Shown here: piece after piece, positions 408 through 29,508 of the stretch | How the letters are laid out: every line of letters starts with the position of its first letter | Position numbering within the stretch: position 1 is the stretch's first letter | Assembly: GCA_028822985.1 (NCBI GenBank) | Contig: JAPKCK010000008.1 | Coordinates: 112 to 64,111, forward strand | Direction: 5' to 3' | Length of the DNA stretch: 64,000 nucleotides | DNA from: Aquiluna sp. | GTDB lineage: Bacteria > Actinomycetota > Actinomycetes > Actinomycetales > Microbacteriaceae | Notes under the pieces: generated by a model | What the model saw: the letters and a program-made list of their open reading frames with translations, nothing else | Databases searched by the model: none | What the model was told of the DNA's origin: nothing | Made by a program: the position numbers and the translations under genes

Positions 408-1043
408 ATGTTCAAGTGGCTTAGATTCAAACGCTCCCCAGAAGTTTCAAGGATGACCTCAAGTTCTTCCCACGAACTAGATTTCACCAACCCCGATCAA
501 GAAAAGTTTGTTAAAAGCCTTAATTCTTGGCGTAAAAACCTCGAGCAGACTCGCGCTCAGGACACCAAGTTAGACCAAAATGACCTAACATTCATGAGTC
601 CAGAGGCGTTGGATGCCCTTCATCAACGGGATGCCCTAATCAAAAAAGAGGCGATGACTAAAAAGCGAGCCGCCAGCCTCGAAAGGAAAGCCGCAGTAGA
701 AAAAGCATCGTCTAAAACAACAACCAAAACAACGACCAAACCGGCTGCCAAAACTGCGGCAAAGCCCGTTTCTAAAACTGTCATCAAGAAGACAGTTGCC
801 ACAGCAGCCAGCAAAGCGGCTACCAAGAAAAACCTCGAGACTGCGTTCAAGCCTCCAATCAAAGCGACTGCTGCTAAACCAAAAACCACACCGGCAAAAA
901 AGGCTCCGGCTAAAACAGCGGCCAAGCCCGCACCAAAGCCAGCCGCCGAAACAAAGCCCAAGAAAGCCACCTCTCCGGCCAAGAAGCCTGCCGCCAAGAA
1001 GCCAGTTGCAAAAACTCCTGCTACGGTGACCAAAAACAAATAG
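408..1043 (+). CDS. Protein with a histone H1-like Lys/Ala/Pro-rich C-terminal tail and an unrecognised N-terminal domain
   Basis: The C-terminal ~110 aa consist of AKKP/PAAK/KTTTK-type repeats; the N-terminal ~100 aa are helical and begin MFKWLRFKR. Confidence 0.75.
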   Translation: MFKWLRFKRSPEVSRMTSSSSHELDFTNPDQEKFVKSLNSWRKNLEQTRAQDTKLDQNDLTFMSPEALDALHQRDALIKKEAMTKKRAASLERKAAVEKASSKTTTKTTTKPAAKTAAKPVSKTVIKKTVATAASKAATKKNLETAFKPPIKATAAKPKTTPAKKAPAKTAAKPAPKPAAETKPKKATSPAKKPAAKKPVAKTPATVTKNK

Positions 1044-2884: not shown

Positions 2885-4300
2885 CTAGCTTTTTTTGAGC
2901 AGACCTGCAATTGAGTTCATTGCTCCGCCCAGCACGGCCGGAATTCCGCCACCCGGGTGGACAGAAGCCCCAACTCTATAAAGCCAAGGTCTAAGTGGGT
3001 TTTGGTATTGAGGGTTATGAAATGGGCCGGATTGCCAGATTGGCTTGGTGGCTCCGTAGAGCGCTCCACCGGGTGCACCCCAGCTGCCAAAGTAGGCCGG
3101 GTCCAAAACAATATGATCTTCGAACAGCTCAGTGATTGGTTTTTTCAGCCCGAGCTTTTTAGAGATTCTCACGATCTCTTGTCTCACCCAAGGGTGATCA
3201 ATGTCATAGCGCTTGCCATCTGCGGGGGCCGTTAGTAGCACGGCAACGGTCGGCTTAGCGTTCGGGTAGATCTCCTTGGCCTTGTAGTAGTTCACAAATG
3301 CCATGGTCTGGTTTGGTAGCTGGTTGCCTTCAAGTTTTTTATAAAGGTCACTTGGGTCATCTGGCATCACAACCGAATGGGTAACTGTGTCTTTGGGCAG
3401 TGGCTTTGCTAAAACCCCATAGATTGCGATTCCCGAGCAAGACCGCATCCTTGCGGGGCTTGCGGGCTTCTTGGTCATCAGTGACTTGAATACCTGAGGG
3501 TCTAAAGAGGACACTACATAGTCGGCCAAAAAGAAGCCGTTCTCGGTTTCGACTTTTCGTTTGTTGATACTTGTTATTTTTTCGCTGAGCTTGATGGTCA
3601 CGCCGGCCGCTATCGCAAGCTTGCCAAGTGACTGGGCAATTTCGTTGACGCCGCCGACCGGAACTCGAATGCCGTCGGTTGCCATGACAGCGGTCATTGA
3701 GGCGTAAAGCGCGAGGGTTTTGGAAGGCGCGATGCCGGCATTGAGAGTGTGGATAGCGATTATGTCTTTTAGATCCTGTGGCAACCACTTGATGGCATTC
3801 AGGTACCAGCTGGTTGTGAGCCTGAAACCATATCGCTTTTGCAGTTTTGCTAACGCGGGCCAGGCTTTCGGGTCAAGCGGCAGTTTGGTTAGCAGCTCGG
3901 TGATTGGCCCGGTTAGCGGAGCATGATCTTTTTCAAATCGCTGCCAAGGCTCCGACCACTTGTGGTCGGGCTTTACCGGCAGGTCGGTTATTTCGTCCTT
4001 GTAGTAATACCTGCCAAGTTCGTTTAGTTTTACAAATTCTAGATCTGCAATTTGTTGAGCTGTCCTTTCTTGTTTCTCACCCAGCTGGTCATAACTTTCC
4101 AGGAGCTTGTCCCAAACACCGGTGAAGGTCACCAGGGCTGGACCGGTGTCCATTATTTGGCCGGCAACGCTAACTCTTCTTGATTTGCCACCTAGCCAGT
4201 CGTGACGCTCAATGACTGTCACTTCGTGACCAGCGCGCGCTAGCAGAGCGGCGCTTGCAAGGCCGGAGAGCCCTGCTCCTAGAACGATTACTTTGCTCAT
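2885..4300 (-). CDS. CrtI-family FAD-dependent carotenoid desaturase (phytoene desaturase or CrtD-like)
   Basis: VIVLGAGLSGLASA dinucleotide-binding motif, LGGKSRR, DTGP and C-terminal GASVHPGGGIPAV; lies downstream of crtEb. Confidence 0.8.
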   Translation of the reverse strand: MSKVIVLGAGLSGLASAALLARAGHEVTVIERHDWLGGKSRRVSVAGQIMDTGPALVTFTGVWDKLLESYDQLGEKQERTAQQIADLEFVKLNELGRYYYKDEITDLPVKPDHKWSEPWQRFEKDHAPLTGPITELLTKLPLDPKAWPALAKLQKRYGFRLTTSWYLNAIKWLPQDLKDIIAIHTLNAGIAPSKTLALYASMTAVMATDGIRVPVGGVNEIAQSLGKLAIAAGVTIKLSEKITSINKRKVETENGFFLADYVVSSLDPQVFKSLMTKKPASPARMRSCSGIAIYGVLAKPLPKDTVTHSVVMPDDPSDLYKKLEGNQLPNQTMAFVNYYKAKEIYPNAKPTVAVLLTAPADGKRYDIDHPWVRQEIVRISKKLGLKKPITELFEDHIVLDPAYFGSWGAPGGALYGATKPIWQSGPFHNPQYQNPLRPWLYRVGASVHPGGGIPAVLGGAMNSIAGLLKKS

Positions 4301-4339
4301 ATTTTCTGACTCTTAGTTTCCTTGTTCATGGTCTCCTTT

Positions 4340-5182
4340 TTACGGGTAGACCCCCAACACCAGTCCAGTTACCAATTGGACGCCCGCAACCGCTCCGGCA
4401 AGATACGGGAAAGCAATGGAGTACTTATAAAGATCGTGAGCTTTTTCAGGCGTTGGAGTTTTGAAGATGCCGTAAACCAACAGTCCTGCGACTACAGCGT
4501 TCACAACTGCAACCGGAATGTTAATAAGCGCAAATAGCACCGTTGAAATTCCCCACCAGAAAGTCGCCCAAATAGCAGTCTTTCTTGGGCCAAGATGGAC
4601 GGCGGTGGTAATGATACCGGTGTCGCTGTCTTGGGGGATGTCTTGAATCGCGTCATAGGCGTGCTTTGCAATTGACCAGGCCATCAAGCCGGTAACCGCC
4701 AACCACACCGGTGTGACTCCAAGGGCCAGCGGAACAAAAGCCAGCGGGAACGCGTAATCGGTATTCGAAAGGGCATCAAGATACTTTCTGGCTTTAAACC
4801 GCAAGGGCGGTGCTGAGTAGAAAGTGAAAAACAACGCATAGGCAAGCATCCAGAGGGTTGCTGCCAATGGCAGGGTAAGGGCGAAGTAGAAAAGAAACGG
4901 AACGTTGGTGACAATTACCGCTATCCAGATTGGTTTGACTTCATTCGGGAAGATGTGGGCACCTTCATAACCGCCCTTTCGGGCGTTTATGTTGTCGGTT
5001 TCTTGGTCAAAGATGTCGTTGATTCCATAGATCAGGATGTTCATCGGGAAGGTGACCCAAATCAAGATTGGGACGATGTCCCACGTCCACAAAAAGCCTG
5101 CCAACCACATTCCAGTGACGGAGGTTCCAATGGTATTTACCCATAGAACCGGGCGAGAAATCTCAATTAGCCGCTTCAACAT
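4340..5182 (-). CDS. crtEb: Lycopene elongase (UbiA-family prenyltransferase, C50 carotenoid synthesis)
   Basis: ISRPVLWVNT start, YGINDIFDQETD Asp-rich motif, YSAPPLRFKA, AYDAIQDIPQD; multiple TM helices; TAGGCT-N6-ATG leaderless start. Confidence 0.85.
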   Translation of the reverse strand: MLKRLIEISRPVLWVNTIGTSVTGMWLAGFLWTWDIVPILIWVTFPMNILIYGINDIFDQETDNINARKGGYEGAHIFPNEVKPIWIAVIVTNVPFLFYFALTLPLAATLWMLAYALFFTFYSAPPLRFKARKYLDALSNTDYAFPLAFVPLALGVTPVWLAVTGLMAWSIAKHAYDAIQDIPQDSDTGIITTAVHLGPRKTAIWATFWWGISTVLFALINIPVAVVNAVVAGLLVYGIFKTPTPEKAHDLYKYSIAFPYLAGAVAGVQLVTGLVLGVYP

Positions 5183-5230
5183 GAGAAAAGCCTAGACGGG
5201 AAGCGGCAGTTTAGTTTGAGGTGAAGCACT

Positions 5231-5312
5231 ATCACAAATGTGCGATTAGAAAACCGCCTTTTTGGGGCGTAAATTGCGATACTTGTCACCAATGTTCAAT
5301 CTTGTTCACAAT
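5231..5312 (+). promoter_or_regulatory. Promoter and candidate SorC-family operator of the dehydrogenase-PTS operon
   Basis: TTGTCA(5283)-N18-CACAAT(5307); TTGTCA/TGTTCA/TGTTCA at 5283, 5293 and 5303 (10-bp phasing); imperfect palindrome ATCACAAATGTGCG at 5231. Confidence 0.4.
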
Positions 5313-5324
5313 CGTGAGGCCTAA

Positions 5325-6335
5325 ATGACAAGCATCAACCCACTGCTGGCTCCTGATACTGGATCAATTAGCGACAATGCAGCCAGCGCAAGCGCCGCCC
5401 TCGAGTCGCTTTTGTCTATTAGGTATTTCGAAGAAGCCGTGGACGGCCTGTTTGCTCGTGGCCTTATGCATGGAACCATGCACCTCTCGATTGGCCAAGA
5501 GGCGGTCGCAACCGGCGTTTGCGCAGCGCTTCGAAGGACTGACTTTATTACCTCCACTCACCGCGGTCACGGTCACTGCATTGCAAAGGGTGCCGATCTG
5601 ACCAGAATGATGGCGGAGCTATTAGCCAAGCAGACCGGTTACTGTCGCGGTCGCGGCGGCTCAATGCACATTGCCGATGTTGAAACCGGAAACCTCGGCG
5701 CCAATGGAATTGTCGCCGGTGGAATCCCAATTGCCGCTGGGGCAGCGCTAGCCCAAAAGATGAAGGGCAAAGATAACGTCGTTGTGAGCTTCTTTGGTGA
5801 TGGTGCAACCAACGAGGGCGCATTCCACGAGGCGATGAACTTGGCGGCCATCTGGGATTTGCCGGTTGTGTTTATTTGCGAAAACAATAAATACGGCATG
5901 AGCGGTTCGACTGAATTCAGCATGAGAATTGACCAGATTGCTGAGCGCGCCGGTAGCTATGGCTTTCCCGGAGTAACGGTTGACGGCAATGACGTAGATG
6001 CTGTTTTCGAAGCCACCAAGACCGCGGTTGAAAGAGCGAGAGCAGGCGAGGGTCCAACTTTGATTGAGTGCATGACCTACCGACACAAGGGGCACTCCAA
6101 GAGCGATAAGAATCTCTACCGCACTAAAGAAGAGATTGAGGAATGGAAGGCCAAGGATCCGATTGGCCGTTTCGAGCAAAAGGTTATGGAGCAGGGGACT
6201 TTGACCAAGGAGCAAATCGATGCAATTACCGAAAAAGCCCGTAATTCGGTCCGCAGCGCAATCACCGAGGCTTCCGAAGCCCCAGATTCTGATCCCGCGG
6301 AGTTACTCAGCAGCGTTTACAGGGAAGCAGAATAA
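5325..6335 (+). CDS. TPP-dependent dehydrogenase E1 alpha subunit (acetoin dehydrogenase AcoA-like)
   Basis: HLSIGQEA, STHRGHGH, GRGGSMH, TPP motif GDGATNEG...ENNKY, YRHKGHS. Confidence 0.9.
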   Translation: MTSINPLLAPDTGSISDNAASASAALESLLSIRYFEEAVDGLFARGLMHGTMHLSIGQEAVATGVCAALRRTDFITSTHRGHGHCIAKGADLTRMMAELLAKQTGYCRGRGGSMHIADVETGNLGANGIVAGGIPIAAGAALAQKMKGKDNVVVSFFGDGATNEGAFHEAMNLAAIWDLPVVFICENNKYGMSGSTEFSMRIDQIAERAGSYGFPGVTVDGNDVDAVFEATKTAVERARAGEGPTLIECMTYRHKGHSKSDKNLYRTKEEIEEWKAKDPIGRFEQKVMEQGTLTKEQIDAITEKARNSVRSAITEASEAPDSDPAELLSSVYREAE

Positions 6336-7325
6336 ATGACCGAACGCATACTTACCTACGCCGAGGCAATTCGCGAGGCGATCGGGCAGGCCATGGAGAC
6401 TGACGAGAACGTCTTCATGCTCGGCGAGGACATCGGCATCTACGGAGGCGCCTTTGGTGTTTCAGGGGATCTTTACCATCGGTTTGGAAAAGATCGAATC
6501 CTAGACACTCCAATTTCAGAGCTCGGAATTGTCGGTGCTGCGGTCGGTGCTGCCCTTGTTGGCATGAAGCCTATTGTTGAGATTCAGTTCTCGGACTTCA
6601 CCGCTCAGGCAATGGACCAGATTGTTAACCAGGCCGCCAAGATTCACTTCATGCTCGGTGGCGAGCTTTCGGTGCCGTTGGTGCTTCGAGCACCTTCCGG
6701 TTCAGGGACCGGTGCTGCTGCGCAGCACTCTCAAAGCCTAGAGGCCTGGTTTGCTCACGTGCCGGGGCTAAAGGTAGTTATGCCATCAAGCCCCTACGAG
6801 GCCAAGGGTCTATTGCTTGCAGCCCTAGATGATCCAAACCCAGTTATTTTCCTAGAGCACAAGCTTTTGTATAAAACCTCAGGCCATGTCCCAGAGGAGC
6901 AATACCGGATTCCATTAGGGACAAGCAACCTGGTGCGAAGCGGCAATGACCTGACGGTCGTGGCAAGCGGCGTGATGGTTTCTAGGTGCCTTGAAGCAGC
7001 TGAATCTCTCAAGGATTCCGGTGTTGAAATAGAGGTAATCGACATTCGATCACTGTCACCTTTTGACATGGGTCCGATAAACGAATCGATTCTAAAAACT
7101 GGCAAGGTCATGCTCGTTCAAGAGGCTCCGAAGCACGGAGGGTTTATGGCCGAGGTTGCAGCTCAAATTTCTGAGGGCCCGGCGCTATTCTCATTGACTG
7201 AGCCGGTTCGAAGGGTGTGCGGAATGGATGTTCCTATTCCATATGCTCCACAGCTTGAAAAGAGTGTTGTTCCTCAGCTGGATGACATCATTGCCAATGC
7301 TTTAGAAGTGCACAGAGGTAGCTAA
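6336..7325 (+). CDS. TPP-dependent dehydrogenase E1 beta subunit (AcoB-like)
   Basis: [39 protein letters not shown]. Confidence 0.9.
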
Positions 7326-8455
7326 TGGCCAGCACCGCGATAGTGATGCCCAAGATGTCAATGACCATGACCGAGGGTGAGGTAGTTGAGATCCTTATCG
7401 CGGTCGGTGATGAAATCACTTCGGGTCACCTCGTGGCAGTGGTTGGAACCGATAAGACCGACATGGAGGTTGAGTCAGACCACGCCGGCAAGGTGCTAGA
7501 GGTTTTGGCTAAACCAGGCGACGTTCTTGAGGTTGGAGCTCCAATGTTTATTTTGGAAACCCAAGGCGAAGACTTACTAGCAGGCTTGTTTGGGTCGGCT
7601 ACAGAAGCGGCAGAACCAGCCCCAGCTGCAACTGAAGCCTTCCCGGTTGCAACTACTAGCCGGGAACCTGCCCAAGAAGCAGTTAGCAGTGAAGTGCCGG
7701 CGGCAGTAGAGGCAGCAAAGCCGATTCTGGCTATGCCCGGCGCTCGCAGGCAAGCACGAGATCAAGGTATTGATCTAGCTAACGTGCAGGCTGCAAGCCC
7801 CAGCGGAGTAATCAAGCAGTCTGATTTGGCTGTGTCCAGTGGTTCAGCTCAAGCCACAGAACCGAACAGAGAGCTAAAGGCGAGGGCTCTGATTGCCAAG
7901 GTTGTCGCGACCTCTCTTGAAATTCCGCAGTTCAGTTTGAGCAAAAAGGTTTCAGTTTCAAAACCACTGCCCAAGGATTTTGTCAAAAGAGCAACTTTGC
8001 TGCTTCGAGCTTGGGAAAAAACTATTGCTGCCAGTCCGAAACTAAACACCAGGTTTGTTGACGGGAGCTTCGTTTCTAACTCCGAGGTCAGAGCTGCCTA
8101 CCTTTTGGAGACAAGCCTCGGCTTTGTGTCACCGGTTATTTCTTTGGCCGGAGACTTTGCAACTAGCGTTCCGAGTATTTTGGCTGCCGCAAGGATAAAC
8201 AAAATTTCGTTGGAGAATCTATCCGGTGCGACAACCTCAGTTACCGACTTATCCGAGTTCGATGTTTTGCAAGCGAACACATTGTTGTTTGGTTCGCAAA
8301 CCAGCGGATTGAATTTAGGTAAAGCATTAGAAGAGGGCCAGACCGTCACAATTGATGTCACAATTGTGCTTGATCACAGAATTGCTGATCCGGGCGATGG
8401 ATCCAGAGCGCTTGGTCTATTCGAAAAGTTTTTGAACGAGGTGTTGGATGGCTAG
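7325..8455 (+). CDS. Dihydrolipoamide acyltransferase E2 (AcoC-like) with a divergent catalytic domain
   Basis: Lipoyl domain (TDKTDMEV), Ala/Pro linker, peripheral-subunit-binding domain (AMPGARRQARDQGIDL), C-terminal DHRIAD. Confidence 0.85.
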   Translation: MASTAIVMPKMSMTMTEGEVVEILIAVGDEITSGHLVAVVGTDKTDMEVESDHAGKVLEVLAKPGDVLEVGAPMFILETQGEDLLAGLFGSATEAAEPAPAATEAFPVATTSREPAQEAVSSEVPAAVEAAKPILAMPGARRQARDQGIDLANVQAASPSGVIKQSDLAVSSGSAQATEPNRELKARALIAKVVATSLEIPQFSLSKKVSVSKPLPKDFVKRATLLLRAWEKTIAASPKLNTRFVDGSFVSNSEVRAAYLLETSLGFVSPVISLAGDFATSVPSILAAARINKISLENLSGATTSVTDLSEFDVLQANTLLFGSQTSGLNLGKALEEGQTVTIDVTIVLDHRIADPGDGSRALGLFEKFLNEVLDG

Positions 8456-9419
8456 TGTTAGAGATCGCGCCATGATCGTTAAGGTCGCTCGCATGTATTA
8501 CGAGCAAGAGATGTCTCAAGACCAGATCGCGAGGGCTCTACTGACTAGCCGGTCGAACATCTCCCGAATTCTTACCGTTGCCAAGAAAAAAGGCATCGTG
8601 GAGATTAAAATTGCGGAAACCACAAAGCGTGAAACCGAATTAGAAGATATGTTAATAGCTCGCTTCGGCCTCCGTGCAGCGCTGGTCGCCATAGTGCCTT
8701 CTGGCTCAAGTGACTACAAGTCGGTAGGGCAACTGGCCGCTCAGCATTTCTTGGCGCAGCTGAAACCGAGCGTCAAGATTGCGCTTTCTTGGGGCAGGTC
8801 ACTTCAGGCAATGGTTAACGAACTGGACGAGGATAATCGTCCAGACGTGACCCTGGTTCCAATCATGGGGGGCATGACCGCGACACCCGCCAGCTTGAGC
8901 GGCGAGACGCTCATCAGAACCTTGGCAAACAAACTGAATTCGGAGTACCTCACGCTGCACGTGCCAACTATCGTGCAGAGCCCAGACGTGAAGGCGGCTT
9001 TATTAAAGGAGCCGAGCGTGAAATCGGTTATTGACGCCGCGAAAATGGCGGACGTAGCCTTTGTTGGCATCGGCTCCAGAGAGTCTTCTAGCTCGAACTA
9101 CATTCTTGAAACCGCAGGCATTAATAAGATTGAGCACCCTGACTTCTGGTCCAGAGCCGCAGGCGATATCGGCGGCAGGTTCTTTGATTCTCGAGGTAAG
9201 GTGATCGACACCAGGCTAGAAAATAGAACTGTGGGTCTAGATCTTGATGAACTAAGAAAAATTCGGAGAGTGGTCGGCGTTGCAGCCGGCGAGGATAAAA
9301 CAATGGGAATTCTGGCAGCGCTTAGGGGCAAGCTACTATCTGATTTGGTGACAAGTTCTAGCTGCGCAATGAAACTTTTGGGTTTGGCAGATCAAGAGAC
9401 ACAGGAAGAGTTGGCATAA
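8448..9419 (+). CDS. SorC/DeoR-family sugar-binding transcriptional regulator
   Basis: VARMYYEQEMSQDQIA HTH, SWGRSL, GGM, AFVGIG, AAGDIGGRFFD, VAAGEDK. Confidence 0.9.
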   Translation: MASVRDRAMIVKVARMYYEQEMSQDQIARALLTSRSNISRILTVAKKKGIVEIKIAETTKRETELEDMLIARFGLRAALVAIVPSGSSDYKSVGQLAAQHFLAQLKPSVKIALSWGRSLQAMVNELDEDNRPDVTLVPIMGGMTATPASLSGETLIRTLANKLNSEYLTLHVPTIVQSPDVKAALLKEPSVKSVIDAAKMADVAFVGIGSRESSSSNYILETAGINKIEHPDFWSRAAGDIGGRFFDSRGKVIDTRLENRTVGLDLDELRKIRRVVGVAAGEDKTMGILAALRGKLLSDLVTSSSCAMKLLGLADQETQEELA

Positions 9420-9422
9420 CTT

Positions 9423-9809
9423 ATGGAAAATCTATTTTGGATCTTTTTACTCATTGCGGGAATGTGGGCATTTCAGCTCTATCTTGCAGTCAAGCAATCT
9501 CAACGGTTCGGTGAGCAAATCAAGGAGATTAGAACCGCTGGCACCACAACATCTGTTGGCATAGGTGGCTACAGATATCGAGGGGGCCGTGCCTTTGTCG
9601 CAATTGCGCAGAAGGACGGAGTCGTTACCGGCTCGAGAGTACTGACGGGATTGTCGGTTTTTGCAAATTCCAAGCCTTGGGACAAGGTAATTGGCATGCA
9701 CATAAGTGATTTAGCTGAAGGCAAAGGTCTTGAGAATGAGAAGAGAAAGCGCAGAGATGGGGCTAAAAGGGCAGCACAGACACTGCTAGATGAAAATGCA
9801 CAAACGTGA
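9423..9809 (+). CDS. gutM: GutM-family glucitol operon activator
   Basis: N-terminal TM helix with WAFQLYL, then VGIGG and G..VFA motifs; lies directly before the srlA-like gene. Confidence 0.75.
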   Translation: MENLFWIFLLIAGMWAFQLYLAVKQSQRFGEQIKEIRTAGTTTSVGIGGYRYRGGRAFVAIAQKDGVVTGSRVLTGLSVFANSKPWDKVIGMHISDLAEGKGLENEKRKRRDGAKRAAQTLLDENAQT

Positions 9810-9851
9810 TTACAAAGTAGCTCGTGATTCAGAACCACCTCCACTAGATTC

Positions 9852-9868
9852 TTGACAAGCATGGTCAA
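9852..9868. promoter_or_regulatory. Perfect inverted repeat TTGAC-N7-GTCAA overlapping a TTGACA hexamer upstream of the PTS genes
   Basis: Read directly: ttgac aagcatg gtcaa in the 91-bp gap between gutM and srlA. Confidence 0.4.
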
Positions 9869-9900
9869 AGTGGCCCGTGCTTCGATCCTTAGGAGGGTTG

Positions 9901-10491
9901 ATGAATCTCTTTACAGACGCAGCAACGGTGTCAGCACCGGAAGGCGTATGGGGAGCAATTGCTAGCGGTGCGGAATATTTCATTGGAATATTCCAAGAAG
10001 GTGGAGTGGTACTTTTCAGTCTTATCGGAGGAATTCTTCCGACTCTGATTGTTCTACTCACGGCAGTTAATGCTCTAGTCCGTCTAATCGGTCCAGATAA
10101 AATCGAAAACTTGGGACGCAAAGCGGCCCAGCCTGGTCTTATCTGGTATCCAGTCCGTTACATGGTGCTGCCGGTCTTGGCAGTATTTTTCCTAACGAAC
10201 CCAATGGCCTACACCATGGGTCGTTTTCTACCAGAGGCGTACAAGCCAGCTTTTTATGACAGCGCGGTTTCGTTTGTACACCCAATTACCGGTCTTTTCC
10301 CGCACGCAAACCCAGGTGAGCTATTTGTTTACCTAGGCATCGCAGCTGGAATTACGACTCTCGGCTTCGGTCTTGGAGACATAGCAATTCGTTTCTTGCT
10401 AGTGGGACTTGTTGTCATCTTTATTCGCGGAGTGGTAACTGAATTTATTACCAAGCGAATGATGGCTAGAAGAGATAAGGCGGCTGCCTAA
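9901..10491 (+). CDS. srlA: PTS glucitol/sorbitol-family EIIC component
   Basis: [58 protein letters not shown]; RBS AGGAGG before ATG 9901. Confidence 0.9.
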
Positions 10492-11021
10492 TGAATAACC
10501 TATTAGTAAAAGTAGGACGCGGAGTTGGTGGCGTCGTTGGAGCTCTTTACCAGGCTGGTAGAGACTCGATTGACACAGTAATCCGGAACATCCTGCCATT
10601 CATGGCGTTTATCTCATTCATCATCGGTCTGGTACTTGTTACCGGCATTGGTGACTTTATTGCTCAGGGCATCAAGCCTCTGGCTAGCAGCCTTGTTGGT
10701 CTGCTAATCGTGTCAGTGATTTGTGCAATTCCATTGCTATCTCCACTTCTAGGTCCAGGTGCGGTTATCGCACAGGTTGTTGGAACCTTGCTAGGTGTCG
10801 AGATTGGTAAGGGAACTATCCCTCCGCAGTACGCACTTCCTGCCCTATTCGCTATCAACCCTCAGGTTGGTTGCGACTTCATACCGGTAGGTCTTGCTCT
10901 TGGTGAAGCCGAGCCAGAGACAGTAGAAATCGGTGTTCCTGCCGTGCTGTTCTCTCGTTTGATCACCGGCCCTACCGCCGTTGTTATTGCGTACTTCGCA
11001 AGCTTCGGCATGTACAGCTAA
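10491..11021 (+). CDS. srlE: PTS glucitol-family EIIBC, stand-alone C-terminal membrane domain (split srlE, C part)
   Basis: [74 protein letters not shown]. Confidence 0.85.
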
Positions 11022-11041
11022 AACGTTTTCCCTAACGGTTG

Positions 11042-11084
11042 ACAGAGGGTGGGTGGAATAATCCGCCCGCCCTCTGTTCTTCTT
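11042..11084 (+). terminator. 16-bp stem-loop inside the operon (terminator-like or mRNA-stabilising)
   Basis: ACAGAGGGTGGGTGGA-ATAA-TCCGCCCGCCCTCTGT (2 G-U pairs) followed by TCTTCTT. Confidence 0.65.
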
Positions 11085-11134
11085 AAAGGCAAGGAAAACA
11101 CTTTTCTGAAACAACGACGTTGAAGGAGTAACAA

Positions 11135-11509
11135 ATGGCAGATTACAAGGCAGTACTAATTGAAAAAGGCCCTGGCGGTTGGGGTGGCCCTTTGACCATT
11201 TTGCCAACCGATGAAAAGCCACTTATCTACTGCGTAACCGGAGGTGGCATTCACCCAATAGCAGCTCGGATTGCGGAGCTCACCGGTGGCCAGGTGTTTG
11301 ACGGCTTCAAGTCCTCAGCACCTTTTGACAAAATCGCAGTAGCAGTCATCGACTGTGGTGGTACGGCGCGCATCGGTGTTTACCCAATGAAGAAGGTAAA
11401 GACCGTGGACATTCACGCAACGAGCCCTGCTGGTCCGTTGGCAATGTTCATAACCGAAGAGCTAATGGTTTCCGGCGTAAAAGCCGACAACATCAAACCG
11501 ATCGACTAG
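11135..11509 (+). CDS. srlE: PTS glucitol-family EIIB, stand-alone soluble domain (split srlE, N part)
   Basis: KGPGGWGGPL, VTGGGIHP, VIDCGGTARIGVYPMK (phospho-acceptor Cys), PAGPLA.FITE; own RBS AAGGAG. Confidence 0.85.
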   Translation: MADYKAVLIEKGPGGWGGPLTILPTDEKPLIYCVTGGGIHPIAARIAELTGGQVFDGFKSSAPFDKIAVAVIDCGGTARIGVYPMKKVKTVDIHATSPAGPLAMFITEELMVSGVKADNIKPID

Positions 11510-11519
11510 AAAGAAAAAA

Positions 11520-11885
11520 ATGACGGCGCTTTACAAAAGCACTGTCACCGAGATTGGCGAATTAGTACCTGCGTTCATAGCGGAGGGAATGTTGGTCTTT
11601 TTTGGTGAAGGGGCTCCGGAGGAACTCAGGGACTTCTGCATCATGCATGAAGTCAGTCACAAGCAGGACCAGGTTATGGTTGGCGATTTTTTTGCCATCG
11701 ATGACCATGAGTTTGAAATTTTGGCCGTCGGCGATGTCGCCAACGAAAACCTGATGAATCTTGGGCACCTAAACCTGAAGGCCAACGGCAACAATCAAGC
11801 AGACCTCCCCGGGGATGTATGCATCGCAGAAGTGGAGCTTCCCGAAATAAGGGTCGGGGCTCACTTCGGTATTACAAGGAGATAA
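11520..11885 (+). CDS. srlB: PTS glucitol/sorbitol-family EIIA component
   Basis: FFGEGAPEELRDFC, VGDVANENLMNLGHL (phospho-acceptor His), LPG. Confidence 0.9.
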   Translation: MTALYKSTVTEIGELVPAFIAEGMLVFFGEGAPEELRDFCIMHEVSHKQDQVMVGDFFAIDDHEFEILAVGDVANENLMNLGHLNLKANGNNQADLPGDVCIAEVELPEIRVGAHFGITRR

Positions 11886-11889
11886 CCAA

Positions 11890-13170
11890 GTGCAATATCG
11901 TTTGAAACTAAAGCAAATGGCAGAGGCCAATGGCCGGCCATTTCGCATTGCTCTGGTTGGCGCCGGGCAGATGGGACGCGGCTTCGCCTCACAGTCACAC
12001 AGACTGGGCTTGCAGGTTGCGGTAGTCGCGGACATAGCTGAAGAGCGCATCAGTCAGGCATTTACCGACCTGGGGCTAGATGCACCGCTAATTTCAAACG
12101 ATATTGCTCTTCTCAATGCTGCGATAGCCAGCGGCAAGCCAGCGGGGACAACGGACTCCAACATTGTTCCGCTTTTGGATGTTGACGTTGTCGTCGAGGC
12201 CACCGGAGTAGCCGAGATCGGTGCTCAGGTTATCTACAACACTTTGATCAATAAAAAGCACAGCGCCACCTTGAATGTCGAGTGTGACGTGACCATTGGG
12301 CCGATGCTGCGCGAGACCGCCAGAGAAAACGGAGTGCTCTACTCGGTTTGCAATGGCGATGAGCCAGCGGAAGCTAAAGAGCTTGTCGATTTTGCGAAGG
12401 ACCTGTCCTTTGAGATCGTGATGGCAGGAAAGGGTAAAAACAATCCTTTCGAGCCTCACTCCAACCCGGATACTGTCTCCGAGCGCGCAGCCCAAAAACA
12501 TATGAACCCCAAGATGCTTGCGAGCTTCACTGACGGCTCCAAAACCATGATTGAGATGGCTGCTCTTGCCAATGCCACCGGCCTAGCCGTTACTAAGCGC
12601 GGAATGATCGGCCCTGCAGCAAGCGTGAAAACTTTGCAGGACGTTTTCTGCCCAGTTGAAGATGGCGGAGTCTTAGAGCAAACCGGCGTAGTTGACTATT
12701 GCACGGGAGATGTTGCACCCGGAGTTTTTGTAATCGTGAAAACCGATAGCCCATATGTTGCCGAAGAGATGAGCTATCTATCAATGGGCAAGGGTCCCTA
12801 CTTTGCTATCTTTCGGCCCTTCCACCTGGCAAGCGTTGAGGCACCGCTAACGGTTGCCAAAATGCTTTGCGATGGCTATGAGACGCTGGTCAGCGGTAAG
12901 CCGACCACTGAGGTCATTGCTTCAACCAAAAAATTACACAAGCAGGGCGAAAAGTTTGACGGCATCGGCGGCTTCTCAGCCCGAGGTGTGACCGACAGGG
13001 TCGAGGATGCCAAAAACGAAAACCTCGTTCCGATTGGTTTATTGCAAGGAGCAACTGCGAGGCGGGACATTCCTATCGATACGCTTATCACCTACGACGA
13101 TGTTGACTTAGATACTTCCCAGACGATTTATCAGCTGCGTCAAAAGCAAGACCAGTTAGGTCTTTCTTAG
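11890..13170 (+). CDS. DXR-II/DRL-family NAD(P)-dependent oxidoreductase/reductoisomerase with a C-terminal SAF domain
   Basis: GAGQMG Rossmann motif, NVECDVTIGP, GDEP, AGKGKNNP, DGSKTMIEMAALANATGL, GKGPYF..RPFHL, DGIGG. These blocks match the Brucella DRL family as I recall it. Confidence 0.85.
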   Translation: MQYRLKLKQMAEANGRPFRIALVGAGQMGRGFASQSHRLGLQVAVVADIAEERISQAFTDLGLDAPLISNDIALLNAAIASGKPAGTTDSNIVPLLDVDVVVEATGVAEIGAQVIYNTLINKKHSATLNVECDVTIGPMLRETARENGVLYSVCNGDEPAEAKELVDFAKDLSFEIVMAGKGKNNPFEPHSNPDTVSERAAQKHMNPKMLASFTDGSKTMIEMAALANATGLAVTKRGMIGPAASVKTLQDVFCPVEDGGVLEQTGVVDYCTGDVAPGVFVIVKTDSPYVAEEMSYLSMGKGPYFAIFRPFHLASVEAPLTVAKMLCDGYETLVSGKPTTEVIASTKKLHKQGEKFDGIGGFSARGVTDRVEDAKNENLVPIGLLQGATARRDIPIDTLITYDDVDLDTSQTIYQLRQKQDQLGLS

Positions 13171-13196
13171 GGGTAAACAAGTAAGAGGGGTGAGAG

Positions 13197-13463
13197 TTGT
13201 CAGAAGATAGCCTCACCGACCCTTGTGGGTTTTGTAGGGACCAAAGACCCAAGCAGGTCCTCTATCAGGGGAAGGTCGCGTTCGGAACAAAGTGCACAGT
13301 CTGTGGCGCCACCGCTCAATACAGCTCTCGCACGCTTAGAAACCACGCTCTGGCTGTGACCCCTCCGGGCTTTGAGCACACACCGCTTGGGATGGTTGCC
13401 AAAATGCTGAAGGACCTGGGCTCGTTTTTTGGCGCAAAGAAAAACAAAGGCCCAGGTAACTAA
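13197..13463 (+). CDS. Small hypothetical protein with two CxxC motifs (zinc-ribbon-like)
   Basis: CGFC and CTVC; purine-rich RBS before the TTG start; fills the gap after the operon. Confidence 0.55.
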   Translation: MSEDSLTDPCGFCRDQRPKQVLYQGKVAFGTKCTVCGATAQYSSRTLRNHALAVTPPGFEHTPLGMVAKMLKDLGSFFGAKKNKGPGN

Positions 13464-13639
13464 GCAGCTAAGTACCGTGATCGCAGGGCATCGTGACAAA
13501 TAAGGCCCTGGAGGTGGCCAAGCGTCCTGAATTCCCTTACACGGCTCAAAACTAAGTGCGAGCACCTCTCAGCTGGGAGCCAGTTCTCCACAGGTACGCG
13601 CTCTAGCTCAAGTGGACTAATCGGACTAAGGTTAGTTTT

Positions 13640-13897
13640 ATGGTGAAGCAGGTGAACATGCACGAGGCAAAGACAAACTTTTCCAAACTCGCTCAACAGG
13701 TTGAGGCTGGTGAAGAGGTTCTGATTGCCAGAGATGGGAAGGTGATCATGAAGCTTTCAAAGTTCGAAGAAGAGCTTTCGGTGCCAAGGGATTTTTCAAG
13801 TTTGAAGGGTCTGACTTCTCCAATAAGTGATGAGGAGTGGGATCGGATGGATCAAGAGTTCCTGGATTCAATCGAATATGGGGAGCTGGATGTATAA
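13640..13897 (+). CDS. Phd/YefM-family antitoxin (VapB)
   Basis: VNMHEAKTNFSKL..QVEAGEEVLIARDGK; overlaps the toxin start. Confidence 0.9.
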   Translation: MVKQVNMHEAKTNFSKLAQQVEAGEEVLIARDGKVIMKLSKFEEELSVPRDFSSLKGLTSPISDEEWDRMDQEFLDSIEYGELDV

Positions 13898-14279
13898 GGG
13901 CTACCTACTTGACACTCAAGTTTTGGTCTGGCTGGAGCACTTTCCAGAGCGCATCGGAAAGAATTCAATCCATCTGATTGAAAGAAGAGAGGTCTATTTC
14001 TCATCGATTTCAGTCGCCGAGCTCTCCTTCAAAGGGTCTTTAGGCAAGTATCCATTCAACCCGGACTCGCCAAGGGCCTGGAACGAAGCGGGCATCAAGA
14101 CATTGAATTTTGACACAGCGGCAGGCTTCGCATTTCCTAGATTTTCTGCCAGTCAGGTACCAGACCCAATAGACCGACAGATCATGGCTACAGCCGCCGC
14201 AAATAACTTGATTCTCCTGACTTCAGATCGAAAGATACTCGCTCAAAACTTTGATTGGGTCTTGGATGCCACAACGTAG
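13890..14279 (+). CDS. vapC: PIN-domain toxin (VapC)
   Basis: YLLDTQVLVW, SSISVAE, DPIDRQIMATA, LLTSDR; ATG 13890 overlaps the antitoxin end. Confidence 0.9.
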   Translation: MYKGYLLDTQVLVWLEHFPERIGKNSIHLIERREVYFSSISVAELSFKGSLGKYPFNPDSPRAWNEAGIKTLNFDTAAGFAFPRFSASQVPDPIDRQIMATAAANNLILLTSDRKILAQNFDWVLDATT

Positions 14280-15516: not shown

Positions 15517-16551
15517 ATGAAAAACATCACATTTGGCCTAGACACCTTTGGCAATGTCTCTCTAGATGACAATGGAAACAATCTTTCCGCCGCGCAGGTA
15601 ATTCGCGATGTCTTAGCTCAGGGTCAGCTCGCCGATGAGTTGGGGATTAATAACTTCAACATCGGTGAACACCACCGTGATGATTTTGCAGTTACTGCTC
15701 CCGACACAATTTTGGCTGGCCTTGCCACCACCACGAAGAACATCACCCTTGGCACCGGAGTGACTGTTTTATCAAGTGAAGATCCGGTTCGGGTTTACCA
15801 GCGCTTTGCCACAATCGATGCACTATCTAACGGTCGGGTTCAGATCACCGCGGGGCGTGGATCATTCATTGAGAGCTTTCCGCTTTTTGGCTACGAGTTG
15901 TCCGATTACAACGAACTGTTTGAGCAGAAACTTGAATTATTAGTCGAGCTTTTGAAAGAGGGTCCCGTTACCTGGTCTGGGTCCATGAGAGCTGGTCTTA
16001 CTAACCAAGAGGTTTATCCAAAGACTGAGCGCGGCCAGATGCCCCTGCGGGTTGGTGTTGGAGGTTCGCCGGAGTCGGTGCTTCGAGCAGCAAGACTAAA
16101 CATTCCAATGGCGCTTGCCATAATCGGCGGTGACCCTGCCAGGTTTGAGCCTTTCGCCAGACTTTATAAAGAAACTCTTGCAAAGCTTGGCGTGCCCGAG
16201 TTGCCAGTTTCGGTTCACTCACCCGGTCATGTTGCAGAAACTGATGACCAGGCCATCGAAGAGGCTTGGCCGGGCTATGAGGCTTCATTTGGGAAGATCG
16301 GGCTTGAGCGCGGCTGGGGTCCGACTTCAAAGGAGCATTTTTTGTCCGAGGTATATCACGGTTCGATGTATGTCGGTTCGCCTGAGACCGTGGCGAAAAA
16401 GATTGTTCATGCCCTTAGCTCTGTTGGTGCCAGCCGCTTTGACCTGAAGTACGACATGGGTCCGTTGCCGCACTCAAAGCTCACAAAAAGCATCGAACTC
16501 TACGCAACGAAGGTTGTGCCTATGGTTCGCGATATGCTCGAAACCGCATAG
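15517..16551 (+). CDS. LLM-class (luciferase-like) flavin-dependent oxidoreductase
   Basis: GEHHRDDF, LSSEDPVRVYQRFATID..SNGR, GRGSFIESFPLFG. Confidence 0.9.
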   Translation: MKNITFGLDTFGNVSLDDNGNNLSAAQVIRDVLAQGQLADELGINNFNIGEHHRDDFAVTAPDTILAGLATTTKNITLGTGVTVLSSEDPVRVYQRFATIDALSNGRVQITAGRGSFIESFPLFGYELSDYNELFEQKLELLVELLKEGPVTWSGSMRAGLTNQEVYPKTERGQMPLRVGVGGSPESVLRAARLNIPMALAIIGGDPARFEPFARLYKETLAKLGVPELPVSVHSPGHVAETDDQAIEEAWPGYEASFGKIGLERGWGPTSKEHFLSEVYHGSMYVGSPETVAKKIVHALSSVGASRFDLKYDMGPLPHSKLTKSIELYATKVVPMVRDMLETA

Positions 16552-16709
16552 CCGTAAGGGCTCAGATCATTTTCATTGAGAGCGAAGCCTTCAGGAATGT
16601 TCGCGAATGATTGGAAATGTTCGTTTGTGACGACTTTGTTATCAAATCTGTACATTTAAGCCTTATTTCGTGGTTATTCTGTAGCCAGACATTCATACTA
16701 GGAGGTTCA

Positions 16710-22059: not shown

Positions 22060-22836
22060 CTACTTTGAAACTTCTTCTTTGTACTCGGTCTTCGCAAACT
22101 CAGCATCGTCAGCAGCGCTCTTGATGCGAGCGATGGTGAAGATCATTAGGCCGAATAGGCACTTAGCAAGGATGTCCGCGATGGTGTAACCGGCTTCACG
22201 AAGAACGAATGACGTCTCGTCGAATCCGGTTGCGTTCATGCTAGCGATGAACGCGATTGGGTAAACACCCCAGGTTGCAAGAAGAAGGAGACGTAGTTCC
22301 TTGATCTTCTTTACAACCCCGGCTGGCTGACGGTCAAGGCTCTTGCCTAGCTCGACGAACAGTACGTAGAGGATGTATAGGAATGGGATGGTTGAAAGCA
22401 AGCCCCATAGTGATGCATCGCCTTCATAGAAAAGGTTTAGCTGGGCATCTCCTGGGTAGCCAAGACCAATCATTAGTGCGGCTGCAGGAACAAGCCTTAC
22501 CAACATCTTGGTCTGAACTGCGCGAGCCAAAGCCAAAACAGCAATGGTCTCAACCAGTAGTAGAGGAACTGTTAGGAACCAGTCGATGTAGCGGTAGCCG
22601 ACGTTGTAGACGACTCCCTCAACTGCTTCGGGTCCGAATGTCTCATTGAAGCTGTCAAACATTCTGAAGTAGTGGTAAGCGGCAATTGCAGTAACTGTTC
22701 CCGAGACCATTACGGCCATGCGGTAACGAGGCAATACGCGCTCACGGGCTACGAACAAAAAGATGGTGGTGAACAACATGCTCGCGATTCCCAGCGAAAA
22801 CAGGTTGTAAAGGAGGTTATATCCTTCATAGCTCAT
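22060..22836 (-). CDS. actR: Actinorhodopsin (xanthorhodopsin-clade light-driven proton pump)
   Basis: 7 TM helices; YHY (helix B His); RYIDWFLTVPLLLVE (DTE motif, Leu tuning residue); WGLLST (antenna-fenestration Gly); DILAK Schiff-base Lys. Confidence 0.95.
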   Translation of the reverse strand: MSYEGYNLLYNLFSLGIASMLFTTIFLFVARERVLPRYRMAVMVSGTVTAIAAYHYFRMFDSFNETFGPEAVEGVVYNVGYRYIDWFLTVPLLLVETIAVLALARAVQTKMLVRLVPAAALMIGLGYPGDAQLNLFYEGDASLWGLLSTIPFLYILYVLFVELGKSLDRQPAGVVKKIKELRLLLLATWGVYPIAFIASMNATGFDETSFVLREAGYTIADILAKCLFGLMIFTIARIKSAADDAEFAKTEYKEEVSK

Positions 22837-25358: not shown

Positions 25359-26210
25359 CTAGTGCCCCTTGGGGTGCCAGACGGTCTTAGTTTCCATCAG
25401 ATCAAGAATGTGCTGAAGTGAGCCCTGCGCCCCGTTTCTTGAGTAGCTGCCTTTGCGAATTACCCGCTTAAGATTTTCGGCAGCCAGCATTTCAAGCTCC
25501 GCAGCGTTCGAGGTGCCTTCCAGGTCAATAGCGTTCACATCCAAGTGAGAGGCGAGCCAGCTTCCGAGTTCACTGGCATTGCCGGTGAGAATGTTGACTA
25601 CTCCGCCGGGTAGGTCAGAGGTTTCCAGCACTTCAGCAAGTGTCACGGCGCAAATCGGCAACGTTTCCGATGAGATCGCAATAACCGAGTTACCAGAAAC
25701 TATCGCCGGGGCGATTGTGTTCACCAGGCCCACCAAAGAAGTGTCTTGAGGCGCAAATGCCGCGACGACTCCAGTTGGTTGATTGGTTGAAATGTTAAAG
25801 AACGGCCCGGCAACCGGATTCATGTTGCCTGCCACCGCATCAATTTTGTCGGTCCAGCCGGCGTGCCAAACCCAGGAATCAATGGCACTGTCTACTTCTT
25901 GGTTAGCTTGCTTTTCGCTCTTGCCGGTTAGTTCGCGAATTTCGGCAACGAACTGCTCACGCCTGCCTTCCAGCATTTCGGCGATTCTGTAGAGAATTTG
26001 TCCGCGGTTATAAGGTGTTGCGCCAGCCCAGCTGGACTGAGCGGAGCGAGCGACAACCACTGAGTCACGCACGTCTTTTCTAGATGCTTTGGCAACGTTT
26101 GCCAGGAACACGCCCTTGTGGTTGTTCACTATGTAGACTCGGCCCGATTCAGATCGAGGAAACTTGCCACCGATGAAGAGTTTGTAGGTTTTCTTTACTT
26201 CCAAGCGCAT
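25359..26210 (-). CDS. Short aldehyde-dehydrogenase-like protein lacking the catalytic domain
   Basis: KLFIGGKFPRSESGR, RGQILYRIAEMLE, LPGGVVNILTG, ETKTVWHP; no ELGGK or catalytic Cys; 283 aa. Confidence 0.85.
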   Translation of the reverse strand: MRLEVKKTYKLFIGGKFPRSESGRVYIVNNHKGVFLANVAKASRKDVRDSVVVARSAQSSWAGATPYNRGQILYRIAEMLEGRREQFVAEIRELTGKSEKQANQEVDSAIDSWVWHAGWTDKIDAVAGNMNPVAGPFFNISTNQPTGVVAAFAPQDTSLVGLVNTIAPAIVSGNSVIAISSETLPICAVTLAEVLETSDLPGGVVNILTGNASELGSWLASHLDVNAIDLEGTSNAAELEMLAAENLKRVIRKGSYSRNGAQGSLQHILDLMETKTVWHPKGH

Positions 26211-28647: not shown

Positions 28648-29508
28648 TTATACCTCGAAAGTGGCTCCAGTTAGTTCCTCGCTGAGTTCCCAGAGCCGCT
28701 TCATCAATCCAAGATCTCGAGACTGCTTGGTGCCCTTTATTGGTTTCGGCACACCCCAGAGCTCTTGGGCTGGGCCGATAAATTCTCCACCTACTAGATC
28801 GGCTTCGACGGTCGCCATTATTTGTGAGCGGGCTCCCTGCTTGGCATTCTGAGCAAAACGATCGAAGCGATTCGGAAAATTATCCTGGAGTCCAGTCATT
28901 GCCCAGCCTGGATGCGCGGCGATTGAAACGACCTGGCTTCCCGATTGCTTGGTTCGTATATCAAGCTCCCTCGCGAACAACAGACACGCCAACTTGGTAT
29001 CGGCATATCGCTGCCAACGGTCGTAGCTTTTCTGGTCCGAACCTTTTAGTTGCTCGAGGCTCATCGATTGAAGCTTGCCTCTTCTGTGGACGGTGCTGGA
29101 AAGCGAGATCACTCTTGGCTCACTCGCTTTTTCTAGTTGCTTCCAAAGGGCCTTGGTCAAGACGAAGTGCCCCAAGTGGTTGATTGCCATTTGAGACTCA
29201 ATTCCATCCACGGACAAACTAAAGTCCGGGCCCATCACTCCAGCGTTATTCATAAGGACATCAATTGGGCTGGAGAATTTATTGGCGAACGAGCGAACCT
29301 CGTCAAAATTTGCAACGTCTAAAACTTGGCTAGTTATCTTCGACTGGGGGTTTTGCTTGGCGATCTCCTCGCTTGCTTTTTCGAGTCGGTCTTTGCCGCG
29401 GGCGGTCATTATGACATCGAACCCAAGGGCGGCAAGCTCCTTGGAAGCTTCCAGCCCTAGTCCACTGCTTGCGCCTGTTATCAGTGCTGTTTTATTTTTG
29501 GTTGGCAT
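28648..29508 (-). CDS. Short-chain dehydrogenase/reductase (WWOX/retinol-dehydrogenase-like subfamily)
   Basis: TGASSGLG, NNAGVM, NHLGHF, YADTK, AHPG. Confidence 0.9.
   Translation of the reverse strand: MPTKNKTALITGASSGLGLEASKELAALGFDVIMTARGKDRLEKASEEIAKQNPQSKITSQVLDVANFDEVRSFANKFSSPIDVLMNNAGVMGPDFSLSVDGIESQMAINHLGHFVLTKALWKQLEKASEPRVISLSSTVHRRGKLQSMSLEQLKGSDQKSYDRWQRYADTKLACLLFARELDIRTKQSGSQVVSIAAHPGWAMTGLQDNFPNRFDRFAQNAKQGARSQIMATVEADLVGGEFIGPAQELWGVPKPIKGTKQSRDLGLMKRLWELSEELTGATFEV

Follow-up and report, generated by a model that had tools for sequence, protein, structure and literature searches.

A glucitol-family phosphotransferase cluster with a DXR-II oxidoreductase and an E1/E2 complex in Aquiluna sp.: a candidate operon for methylerythritol use

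Introduction

Why would a planktonic actinobacterium whose lineage has both Dxs and DxrI carry an oxidoreductase of the DXR-II (DRL) family beside a complete glucitol (Gut)-family phosphotransferase system (PTS) and the E1 and E2 components of a dehydrogenase complex? The question is raised by a gene cluster on a 64,000-nt stretch of Aquiluna sp. DNA (assembly GCA_028822985.1, contig JAPKCK010000008.1, positions 112 to 64,111 of the forward strand), the whole of which is hereafter referred to as the window. The answer proposed here is an accessory operon that handles a tetritol with a methyl branch. Its most likely substrate is 2-C-methyl-D-erythritol (ME), which would be taken through its 4-phosphate (MEP) and DXP (1-deoxy-D-xylulose 5-phosphate) to acetyl-CoA and glyceraldehyde 3-phosphate (GAP), with a salvage branch in relatives. 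The chances that this reading is correct are judged to be about even.

ME and related methyltetrols originate from overflow of plant and algal methylerythritol cyclodiphosphate (MEcDP) and from aerosols formed by isoprene oxidation. According to a review of February 2026, no pattern has come to light that would define where DXR-II occurs, and full-text literature searches returned no description of methylerythritol catabolism, of a dehydrogenase complex cleaving DXP or of a non-biosynthetic role of DXR-II. The catabolic hypothesis was put forward in an initial annotation of the window; its interpretation is supported, in that the predictions which could be checked in silico came out in favour. 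The cluster is inferred to be a polyol PTS operon assembled from known component families, with new downstream chemistry.

The DXR-II oxidoreductase

The oxidoreductase of the cluster aligns end to end with the DRL of Brucella abortus (BAB2_0264; structures 3upl and 3upy) at ~48% amino acid identity (E ~1e-91; for 3upy, E 3.5e-91 over residues 13-423), and shares with it the DRL_cat and SAF fold. Residues K191, K193 and T229, which anchor substrate and fosmidomycin in DXR-II, are kept together with the dimer residue R320 (roles as described in PMC3847144), and the complete D167, E168, K191, K193, T229, E232 signature is present. In addition, the protein matches ~29 of the 33 DXR-II-conserved positions in Table S1 of PMC3847144, that is, the sites by which DXR-II can be told apart from DLO1 and DLO2, which are inactive relatives.

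In a neighbour-joining tree of 185 homologues, the window's protein and every PTS-linked homologue carry the DEKKTE signature together with Brucella DRL 3upy, and the protein from Thermosediminibacter oceani, listed as a DXR-II family member by Carretero-Paulet et al., falls in the same PTS-linked group. The outgroups of the tree show DQNK(L/M)E or DQKTSE; as DLO sequences were not individually named, these are taken to be DLO-like by the T229 rule. Judging by sequence, the oxidoreductase is a DXR-II-clade protein, as the initial annotation had held, and is neither a DLO relative nor a plain polyol dehydrogenase. Eleven members of the DXR-II clade have been reported to complement E. coli dxr mutants, while four DLO proteins fail to do so (PMC3847144). 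The rearrangement of DXP to MEP is performed in vivo by clade members from three phyla, and the DXR-II of Chloroflexus aurantiacus is active.

The setting differs from that in Brucella. There, DRL replaces the lost DXR-I and is biosynthetic, whereas here its homologue belongs to a PTS/E1E2 operon in a lineage with Dxs and DxrI, on account of which a net flux from MEP to DXP is proposed.

Composition of the cluster

Ten co-directional ORFs on the (+) strand occupy positions 5325-13170 (ORF listing with Pfam and NCBIfam annotation; Table 1), exactly as initially annotated, with intergenic gaps of 0, -1, -8, 3, 67, -1, 113, 10 and 4 nt. Since the genes abut or overlap, the block is operon-like and chance juxtaposition is rejected; gene content and operon packing together support one functional block. 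Its GC content is uniform with that of the rest of the window. The end of the cluster, however, had been set too early: when an eleventh conserved gene, coding for a small zinc-ribbon protein with no Pfam match, is counted, the block reaches 13463. Homologues of this protein are encoded by ORFs of 104-111 aa that close the cluster in 41 of the 80 loci surveyed below, including L001 (11992-12327) and L088 of T. oceani (16271-16585; L numbers denote surveyed loci). The family extends from Actinomycetota, freshwater Actinobacteria among them, to Thermosediminibacter, the Aquiluna version being shorter.

The Gut-family EII set was correctly described as complete, with EIIC1 (SrlA), EIIBC2 (SrlE) and EIIA (SrlB) all matched. 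Together with GutM, these components resemble those of the enterobacterial srlAEBD-gutM-srlR operon. One correction is added: the SrlE-like EIIBC is split in two genes, with its halves in swapped order and a conserved hairpin between them. The cluster departs from the enterobacterial operon also in having a SorC-type regulator, E1/E2 and DRL, and in lacking SrlD. The SorC and GutM assignments are borne out by the Pfam matches, and so is the absence of srlD, as ORF and domain annotation revealed no sorbitol-6-phosphate dehydrogenase of either the short-chain dehydrogenase/reductase (SDR) or the zinc-dependent alcohol dehydrogenase (Zn-ADH) type within 5325-13463 or adjoining it; the nearest SDR (28648-29508) lies 15 kb off in an unrelated context.

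The names of the models invite the question of whether this might be an ordinary sorbitol operon that happens to lie beside an ordinary pyruvate dehydrogenase (PDH) or acetoin dehydrogenase, with DRL acting as a non-orthologous sorbitol-6-phosphate dehydrogenase. The PTS and GutM models are indeed named for glucitol, and EIIC passes the SrlA equivalog cutoff. However, srlD is missing, E1/E2 would be superfluous after fructose 6-phosphate, and E1alpha and E2 score under the PDH equivalog cutoffs. Moreover, the linkage between DRL and E1/E2 outlasts a swap of the PTS family, the cluster is linked to ispD and ispF in other genomes, and DXR activity is known from the DRL clade. This is the least likely of the readings considered here and is regarded as highly improbable.

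As to the dehydrogenase components, E1alpha scores 372 bits with TIGR03182, under the PDH equivalog cutoff of 393.85, and its closest PDB match is the human PDH E1alpha; both E1alpha and E1beta also give weak matches to Dxs models. The lipoyl domain of E2 (55 bits) is accompanied by a catalytic domain in which the catalytic His is kept (DHRIADPGDG), and all equivalog models are far under their cutoffs, the best reaching 101 bits against 445. The AcoC model NF011457 covers only the lipoyl region (68 versus 307 bits). On these grounds E2 is classed as a PDH-type lipoyl acyltransferase. Hence, of the AcoA/B/C-like trio proposed at first, the presence of E1alpha, E1beta and a lipoyl-E2 stands, whereas the AcoC-type identity of E2 had to be given up.

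Table 1. Genes and non-coding elements of the cluster in the window (ThDP, thiamine diphosphate; DH, dehydrogenase)
Feature	Position	Strand	Supporting details
Putative promoter/operator region upstream of E1alpha	5232-5316	+	Three TCACAAnnGTG-like direct repeats; sigma-70-like site 5283-5312; pattern matches only
E1alpha (E1_dh)	5325-6335	+	PF00676 318 bits; GDG...NN ThDP-binding motif; PDH/acetoin-DH alpha2beta2 type
E1beta	6336-7325	+	Transket_pyr PF02779 and Transketolase_C PF02780; NF006667 363 bits
Lipoyl-E2 acyltransferase	7325-8455	+	Lipoyl, E3-binding and divergent 2-oxoacid_dh catalytic domains
SorC/DeoR(Bs)-type sugar-phosphate-sensing regulator	8448-9419	+	Sugar-bind PF04198 213 bits
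GutM-type activator	9423-9809	+	PF06923
Internal promoter region	9810-9876	+	RNA depth rises from ~0-5 to 200-540 at ~9870
PTS EIIC1 (SrlA-like, EII-GUT)	9877-10491	+	PF03608; NF049923 225 bits, cutoff 150; gene-caller start 9901
PTS EIIC2, C-terminal half of split SrlE (EIIBC-GUT)	10491-11021	+	PF07663; NF049924 positions 157-330
Conserved intercistronic GC-rich stem-loop, 16-nt arms	11042-11077	+	Lies between the split-EIIBC halves, in their 113-nt gap
PTS EIIB, N-terminal half of split SrlE	11135-11509	+	PF03612; NF049924 positions 1-119; IDCGGT cysteine
PTS EIIA (SrlB-like, PTSIIA_gutA)	11520-11885	+	PF03829
DXR-II/DRL-family NAD(P) oxidoreductase, proposed MEP/DXP interconversion	11890-13170	+	DRL_cat PF21135 223 bits; SAF 23 bits
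Small CxxC...CxxC zinc-ribbon protein, conserved cluster member	13197-13463	+	Homology to cluster-ending small ORFs

Conservation of the linkage across genomes

To find related loci, one genome per GTDB species was scanned with a 4-sequence DRL alignment, and the surrounding ORFs were labelled by phmmer. The survey comprises 80 listed loci with DRL proteins 43-80% identical; the Listeria, Brucella and C. difficile loci are not among them. Linkage was counted in the 39 species loci that had 7 kb or more of flanking sequence to either side. A Gut PTS is encoded in 37/39 of them, and in 32/39 it is joined by E1alpha, E1beta and E2, while E1/E2 without PTS was never seen (0/39). The neighbourhood survey suggested in the initial annotation therefore found DXR-II, Gut PTS and E1/E2 together in four phyla. 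Actinomycetota carriers include Aquiluna, Nanopelagicales, Nocardioides, Klenkia, Nocardia, Mycolicibacterium, Amycolatopsis, Streptomyces, Cryobacterium and Salinibacterium; the remaining ones belong to Chloroflexota, Spirochaetota and Bacillota. Some carriers are in culture, such as Streptomyces ipomoeae, Nocardioides lentus and T. oceani. Over these four phyla the gene order is shuffled, with the E1/E2 block lying upstream, downstream or divergent depending on the lineage, as would be expected if the linkage is functional and not historical. In Listeria a Gut PTS (lmo0542-0544) is presumably located near the DXR-II gene as well.

Several loci deserve separate mention. The cluster of T. oceani (L088) reads SorC-GutM-EIIC-EIIBC-EIIA-DRL-E1a-E1b-E2-E3-Zn-ribbon-EI, and E3 also joins the cluster in Mycolicibacterium. 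A metagenome-assembled genome (MAG) of Chloroflexus sp. contains the full cluster, ending in HPr and EI (the locus of C. aurantiacus J-10-fl itself was not recovered). In Irregularibacter muris (L089, 8146-21247) a Gat-family PTS takes the place of the Gut one, with SorC, DRL and E1/E2 kept and with RpiB and a class II aldolase added; this cluster sits directly after carD-PIN-ispD. Finally, a Bacillota MAG (L075, 8266-13795) harbours a kinase-based version without PTS, composed of SIS, Zn-ADH, DRL, FGGY kinase and RpiR. A megablast search with the cluster as query, covering every complete E. coli genome, gave no match.

Links to the MEP pathway

A feature not foreseen in the initial annotation is the link to IspD and IspF, which points to salvage: within 10 kb, an IspD-like gene is found in 28/39 and IspF in 18/39 loci. 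In Nanopelagicales the cluster lies between ispF-cysS and carD, and its own IspD scores better than the copy on the carD side (TIGR00453, 156 versus 55 bits). On the complete 1.41-Mb chromosome of a Nanopelagicaceae member (L019, 900-12587), EI is inserted between E2 and SorC, and HPr is divergent beside ispF, which suggests that the PTS of this streamlined genome serves this one substrate. Judging from the Clostridia example of Irregularibacter, adjacency to ispD arose more than once.

In the window's own lineage the cluster is an accessory and patchy trait rather than a housekeeping route, since Dxs and DxrI are present and DxrII is absent in its cultured relatives, namely Aquiluna borgnonia, Rhodoluna planktonica, and three species of Nanopelagicus and five of Planktophila. 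The idea that acI and Aquiluna use DRL as their housekeeping DXR, prompted by some Planktophila loci with only DRL and IspD, was set aside because all the cultured relatives have DxrI and Dxs, although the genome of the window itself might be an exception. The MEP-pathway genes of Chloroflexus aurantiacus are limited to DxrII and an IspD-like hit, with Dxs, DxrI and IspE-H absent, and the organism makes isoprenoids by the mevalonate pathway. As its DXR-II is active in spite of the missing remainder of the pathway, a biosynthetic role is excluded there.

These distributions bear on a biosynthetic interpretation, in which E1alpha/beta would be a Dxs-independent DXP synthase (from pyruvate and GAP), DRL the DXR, and the cluster an alternative entry into the MEP pathway. 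T. oceani and Tepidanaerobacter Re1, which carry the cluster or its DRL, are listed as having DXR-II family members and as retaining IspD-G, with neither Dxs nor DXR-I present; E1 is homologous to Dxs, a mutant AceE can make DXP, and the cluster is found adjacent to ispD and ispF. However, such a role leaves the embedded polyol PTS, SorC/GutM and the lipoyl-E2/E3 unexplained, the window's lineage has Dxs and DxrI, and Chloroflexus lacks the rest of the pathway. For the window this interpretation is therefore considered very unlikely. Nevertheless, T. oceani, which carries the cluster, and Tepidanaerobacter Re1 raise the possibility that the cluster is connected with those MEP pathways that run without Dxs and are still unexplained. 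A broader scheme may be drawn, speculative and on balance unlikely, in which the ancestral role of DXR-II was catabolic or salvage-related, the enzyme being the hinge of a widespread ME pathway with a reversible DXP-forming and DXP-cleaving E1. The same cluster would then act as the alternative MEP entry in bacteria that lack Dxs and DXR-I and keep IspD-H (Thermosediminibacter, Tepidanaerobacter), and DRL of Brucella and Bartonella would be a secondary recruitment.

Proposed pathway

The catabolic route preferred here is built on gene families, clade membership and linkage as observed, and on the transcripts seen for PTS and DRL genes; its substrate, the direction of flux and the specificity of E1/E2 are what we infer. 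The Gut-family PTS (EIIC1, EIIC2, EIIB and EIIA, with EI and HPr from elsewhere in the genome) would import ME and release MEP. A precedent exists in Salmonella, whose sorbitol (Gut-family) PTS is reported to transport exogenous methylerythritol, according to the title of Testa et al. 2004 as cited in PMC3994034 and PMC4082188. The DXR-II enzyme would then oxidise and rearrange MEP to DXP, a methyl ketol, the C2 carbonyl of which would be attacked by the ThDP of E1alpha/beta with release of GAP. The hydroxyethyl-ThDP so formed would be oxidised onto the lipoyl group of E2 and leave as acetyl-CoA with the help of the host E3.

The DXR reaction is reversible, with its equilibrium on the MEP side. 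The irreversible oxidative cleavage would thus be expected to pull the unfavourable reverse reaction. SorC and GutM are predicted to sense a phosphorylated intermediate. In relatives with an attached IspD and an ispF locus, part of the imported MEP may be salvaged into isoprenoids.

Two known systems lend themselves to comparison. In the acetoin dehydrogenase AcoABCL, an alpha2beta2 ThDP-dependent E1 and a lipoyl-E2 cleave CH3-CO-CHOH-R to acetyl-CoA and an aldehyde; the same chemistry is proposed here with R = CHOH-CH2OP. Unlike in AcoABCL, E2 is of the PDH type, E3 is not found in the window, and the partners are PTS and DRL instead of acetoin genes. Dxs, in turn, is a homologous ThDP enzyme, and the proposed E1 half-reaction would be the reverse of its carboligation (hydroxyethyl-ThDP + GAP = DXP), although Dxs is a single-chain homodimer without lipoyl-E2, decarboxylative and biosynthetic. 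That a mutated PDH E1 (AceE) can make DXP (PMC3424233) indicates that E1 chemistry with DXP is feasible.

Transcription and non-coding elements

Expression was estimated as contig depth in four marine metatranscriptomes from relatives 90-97% identical, which is a crude measure. Coverage is 0-5 over the genes from E1a to GutM and rises at ~9870 to 200-540 over EIIC1 and EIIC2. Just past the hairpin at 11042-11077 it goes down 5-7 fold, to ~50. From there, single contigs carry it on over EIIB, EIIA and DRL until it tapers off at ~13200-13290. The PTS and DRL genes are hence co-transcribed and active in nature, and E1/E2 together with SorC and GutM make up another unit, of low expression in these samples. 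The difference is a large one even for so rough a measure.

The folding energy of the gap that contains the hairpin is -44.9 kcal/mol (z -4.8), and its structure, though not its sequence, is conserved in relatives from Aquiluna and Nanopelagicales (L008, L001 and L012). Its features would fit a partial terminator, or an element governing mRNA stability, by which the ratio of membrane to soluble PTS components is set. An Rfam scan of 4900-13800 returned nothing.

Weighing of the evidence

A number of observations weigh against ME catabolism and must be borne in mind. The oxidoreductase departs from the DXR-II consensus, and from Brucella DRL, at four positions (P118A, H250I, P346S and V351T), of which position 250 varies (H/Y/I/T/N) inside the PTS-linked clade, and T229A occurs in some actinobacterial relatives. 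PTS and DRL transcripts exceed those of E1/E2 10-100 times; with coverage of 0-5 versus 50-540, the two units were not co-induced in the samples analysed. Among the 39 loci, five combine PTS with DRL but have no E1/E2, and another two lack both PTS and E1/E2, containing DRL and IspD only. No E3 was seen in the annotated parts of the window, and E3, EI and HPr all lie outside it; the IspD gene of the relatives' clusters is absent from the window too. Furthermore, the catalytic His of E2 is lost in Nanopelagicaceae homologues (DLxxCDFYDG), and the Nanopelagicales E2 genes of L013, L014, L019 and L021 read IDLNFCDFYDG or IDLRYCDFYDG at this motif, so that E2 of acI bacteria may, from its sequence, be only a lipoyl carrier or scaffold.

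Some of these points fit better with salvage than with catabolism, that is, with import of ME as MEP mainly for isoprenoids via IspD/IspF, where DRL would equilibrate MEP and DXP for thiamine and pyridoxal phosphate precursors and E1/E2 would be a minor overflow or unrelated. Such a function is consistent with the frequent ispD and ispF neighbours, acquired independently in Actinomycetota and Clostridia, with the existence of loci that have PTS and DRL only, with the great excess of PTS and DRL transcripts in situ and with the carotenoid genes that the window's cluster abuts. Meanwhile, E1/E2 accompanies DRL in 32/39 loci over four phyla, some of them with E3; DRL is needless for MEP salvage where Dxs and DxrI exist; in Chloroflexus the downstream MEP pathway that salvage would feed is missing; and the window itself is without IspD. 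Salvage as the principal function is thus unlikely.

It may also be asked whether the logic of the pathway holds for a different substrate, such as a 1-deoxy-pentitol or 1-deoxy-hexitol, 2-C-methylthreitol or another branched tetritol, whose conversion by the DRL-like enzyme, whether rearranging or not, would yield a methyl-ketose phosphate for E1/E2 to split. The identity of a substrate is unreadable from sequence, and the deviations at positions 118, 250, 346 and 351, together with T229A in relatives, may signal altered specificity. The Bacillota variant that pairs DRL with an FGGY kinase, Zn-ADH and SIS proteins and the Irregularibacter variant with RpiB and class II aldolase would be in line with this. 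However, the clade members that carry out the unusual rearrangement of DXP to MEP in vivo come from three phyla, and the repeated adjacency to ispD and ispF points specifically to MEP, which makes another substrate quite unlikely.

Genomic context of the cluster

The closest genomes are Aquiluna MAGs with DRL proteins 79-80% identical. An Aquiluna MAG (L008) has the cluster between the same flanks as the window, with CrtI-like and UbiA genes upstream and a PhdYeFM/PIN pair and an LLM oxidoreductase downstream. Logan metagenome contigs that keep the window's gene order encode an identical DRL protein, and the runs holding the cluster sequence are labelled as marine and salt-lake metagenomes.

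In the window, the carotenoid genes for the CrtI-like desaturase and the UbiA prenyltransferase, 2885-5182 (-), are located directly upstream of the cluster, and an actinorhodopsin gene, 22060-22836 (-), lies 9 kb downstream of it. Taken together, these genes indicate a light-harvesting planktonic actinobacterium with isoprenoid-derived pigments. The PhdYeFM antitoxin and PIN toxin pair shared with L008 is situated at 13640-14279 (+), between the cluster and rlmN.

Farther away, a 283-aa ORF at 25359-26210 (-) matches only the N-terminal half of aldehyde dehydrogenase (profile positions 4-233 of 461). It adjoins a full-length aldehyde dehydrogenase paralogue directly upstream (26210-27640), of which it is probably a truncated duplicate. 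At 408-1043 (+), a Lys/Ala/Pro/Thr-rich repetitive protein (KPAAKTAAKP...) is encoded that resembles actinobacterial histone-like proteins; its gene falls within the first 2 kb of the window, where the AT skew is strong.

Implications

If the proposed reading is true, the cluster represents a new carbon-source pathway in abundant planktonic Actinobacteria, namely Aquiluna and the acI/Nanopelagicales, the latter with HPr and EI in the cluster, and the same pathway would operate in soil actinomycetes, Chloroflexi, spirochaetes and anaerobic Firmicutes. It would predict a new enzyme activity, that of an oxidative DXP-cleaving dehydrogenase complex, and may bear on the 172 unexplained species with a Dxs-less MEP pathway. 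It would also be relevant to the targeting of fosmidomycin-type antibiotics and to the metabolic engineering of MEP flux. It would likewise answer a question that was posed in 2013 and came up again in 2026, that is, why DXR-II is scattered among bacteria, is redundant with DXR-I and is present in organisms without the MEP pathway.

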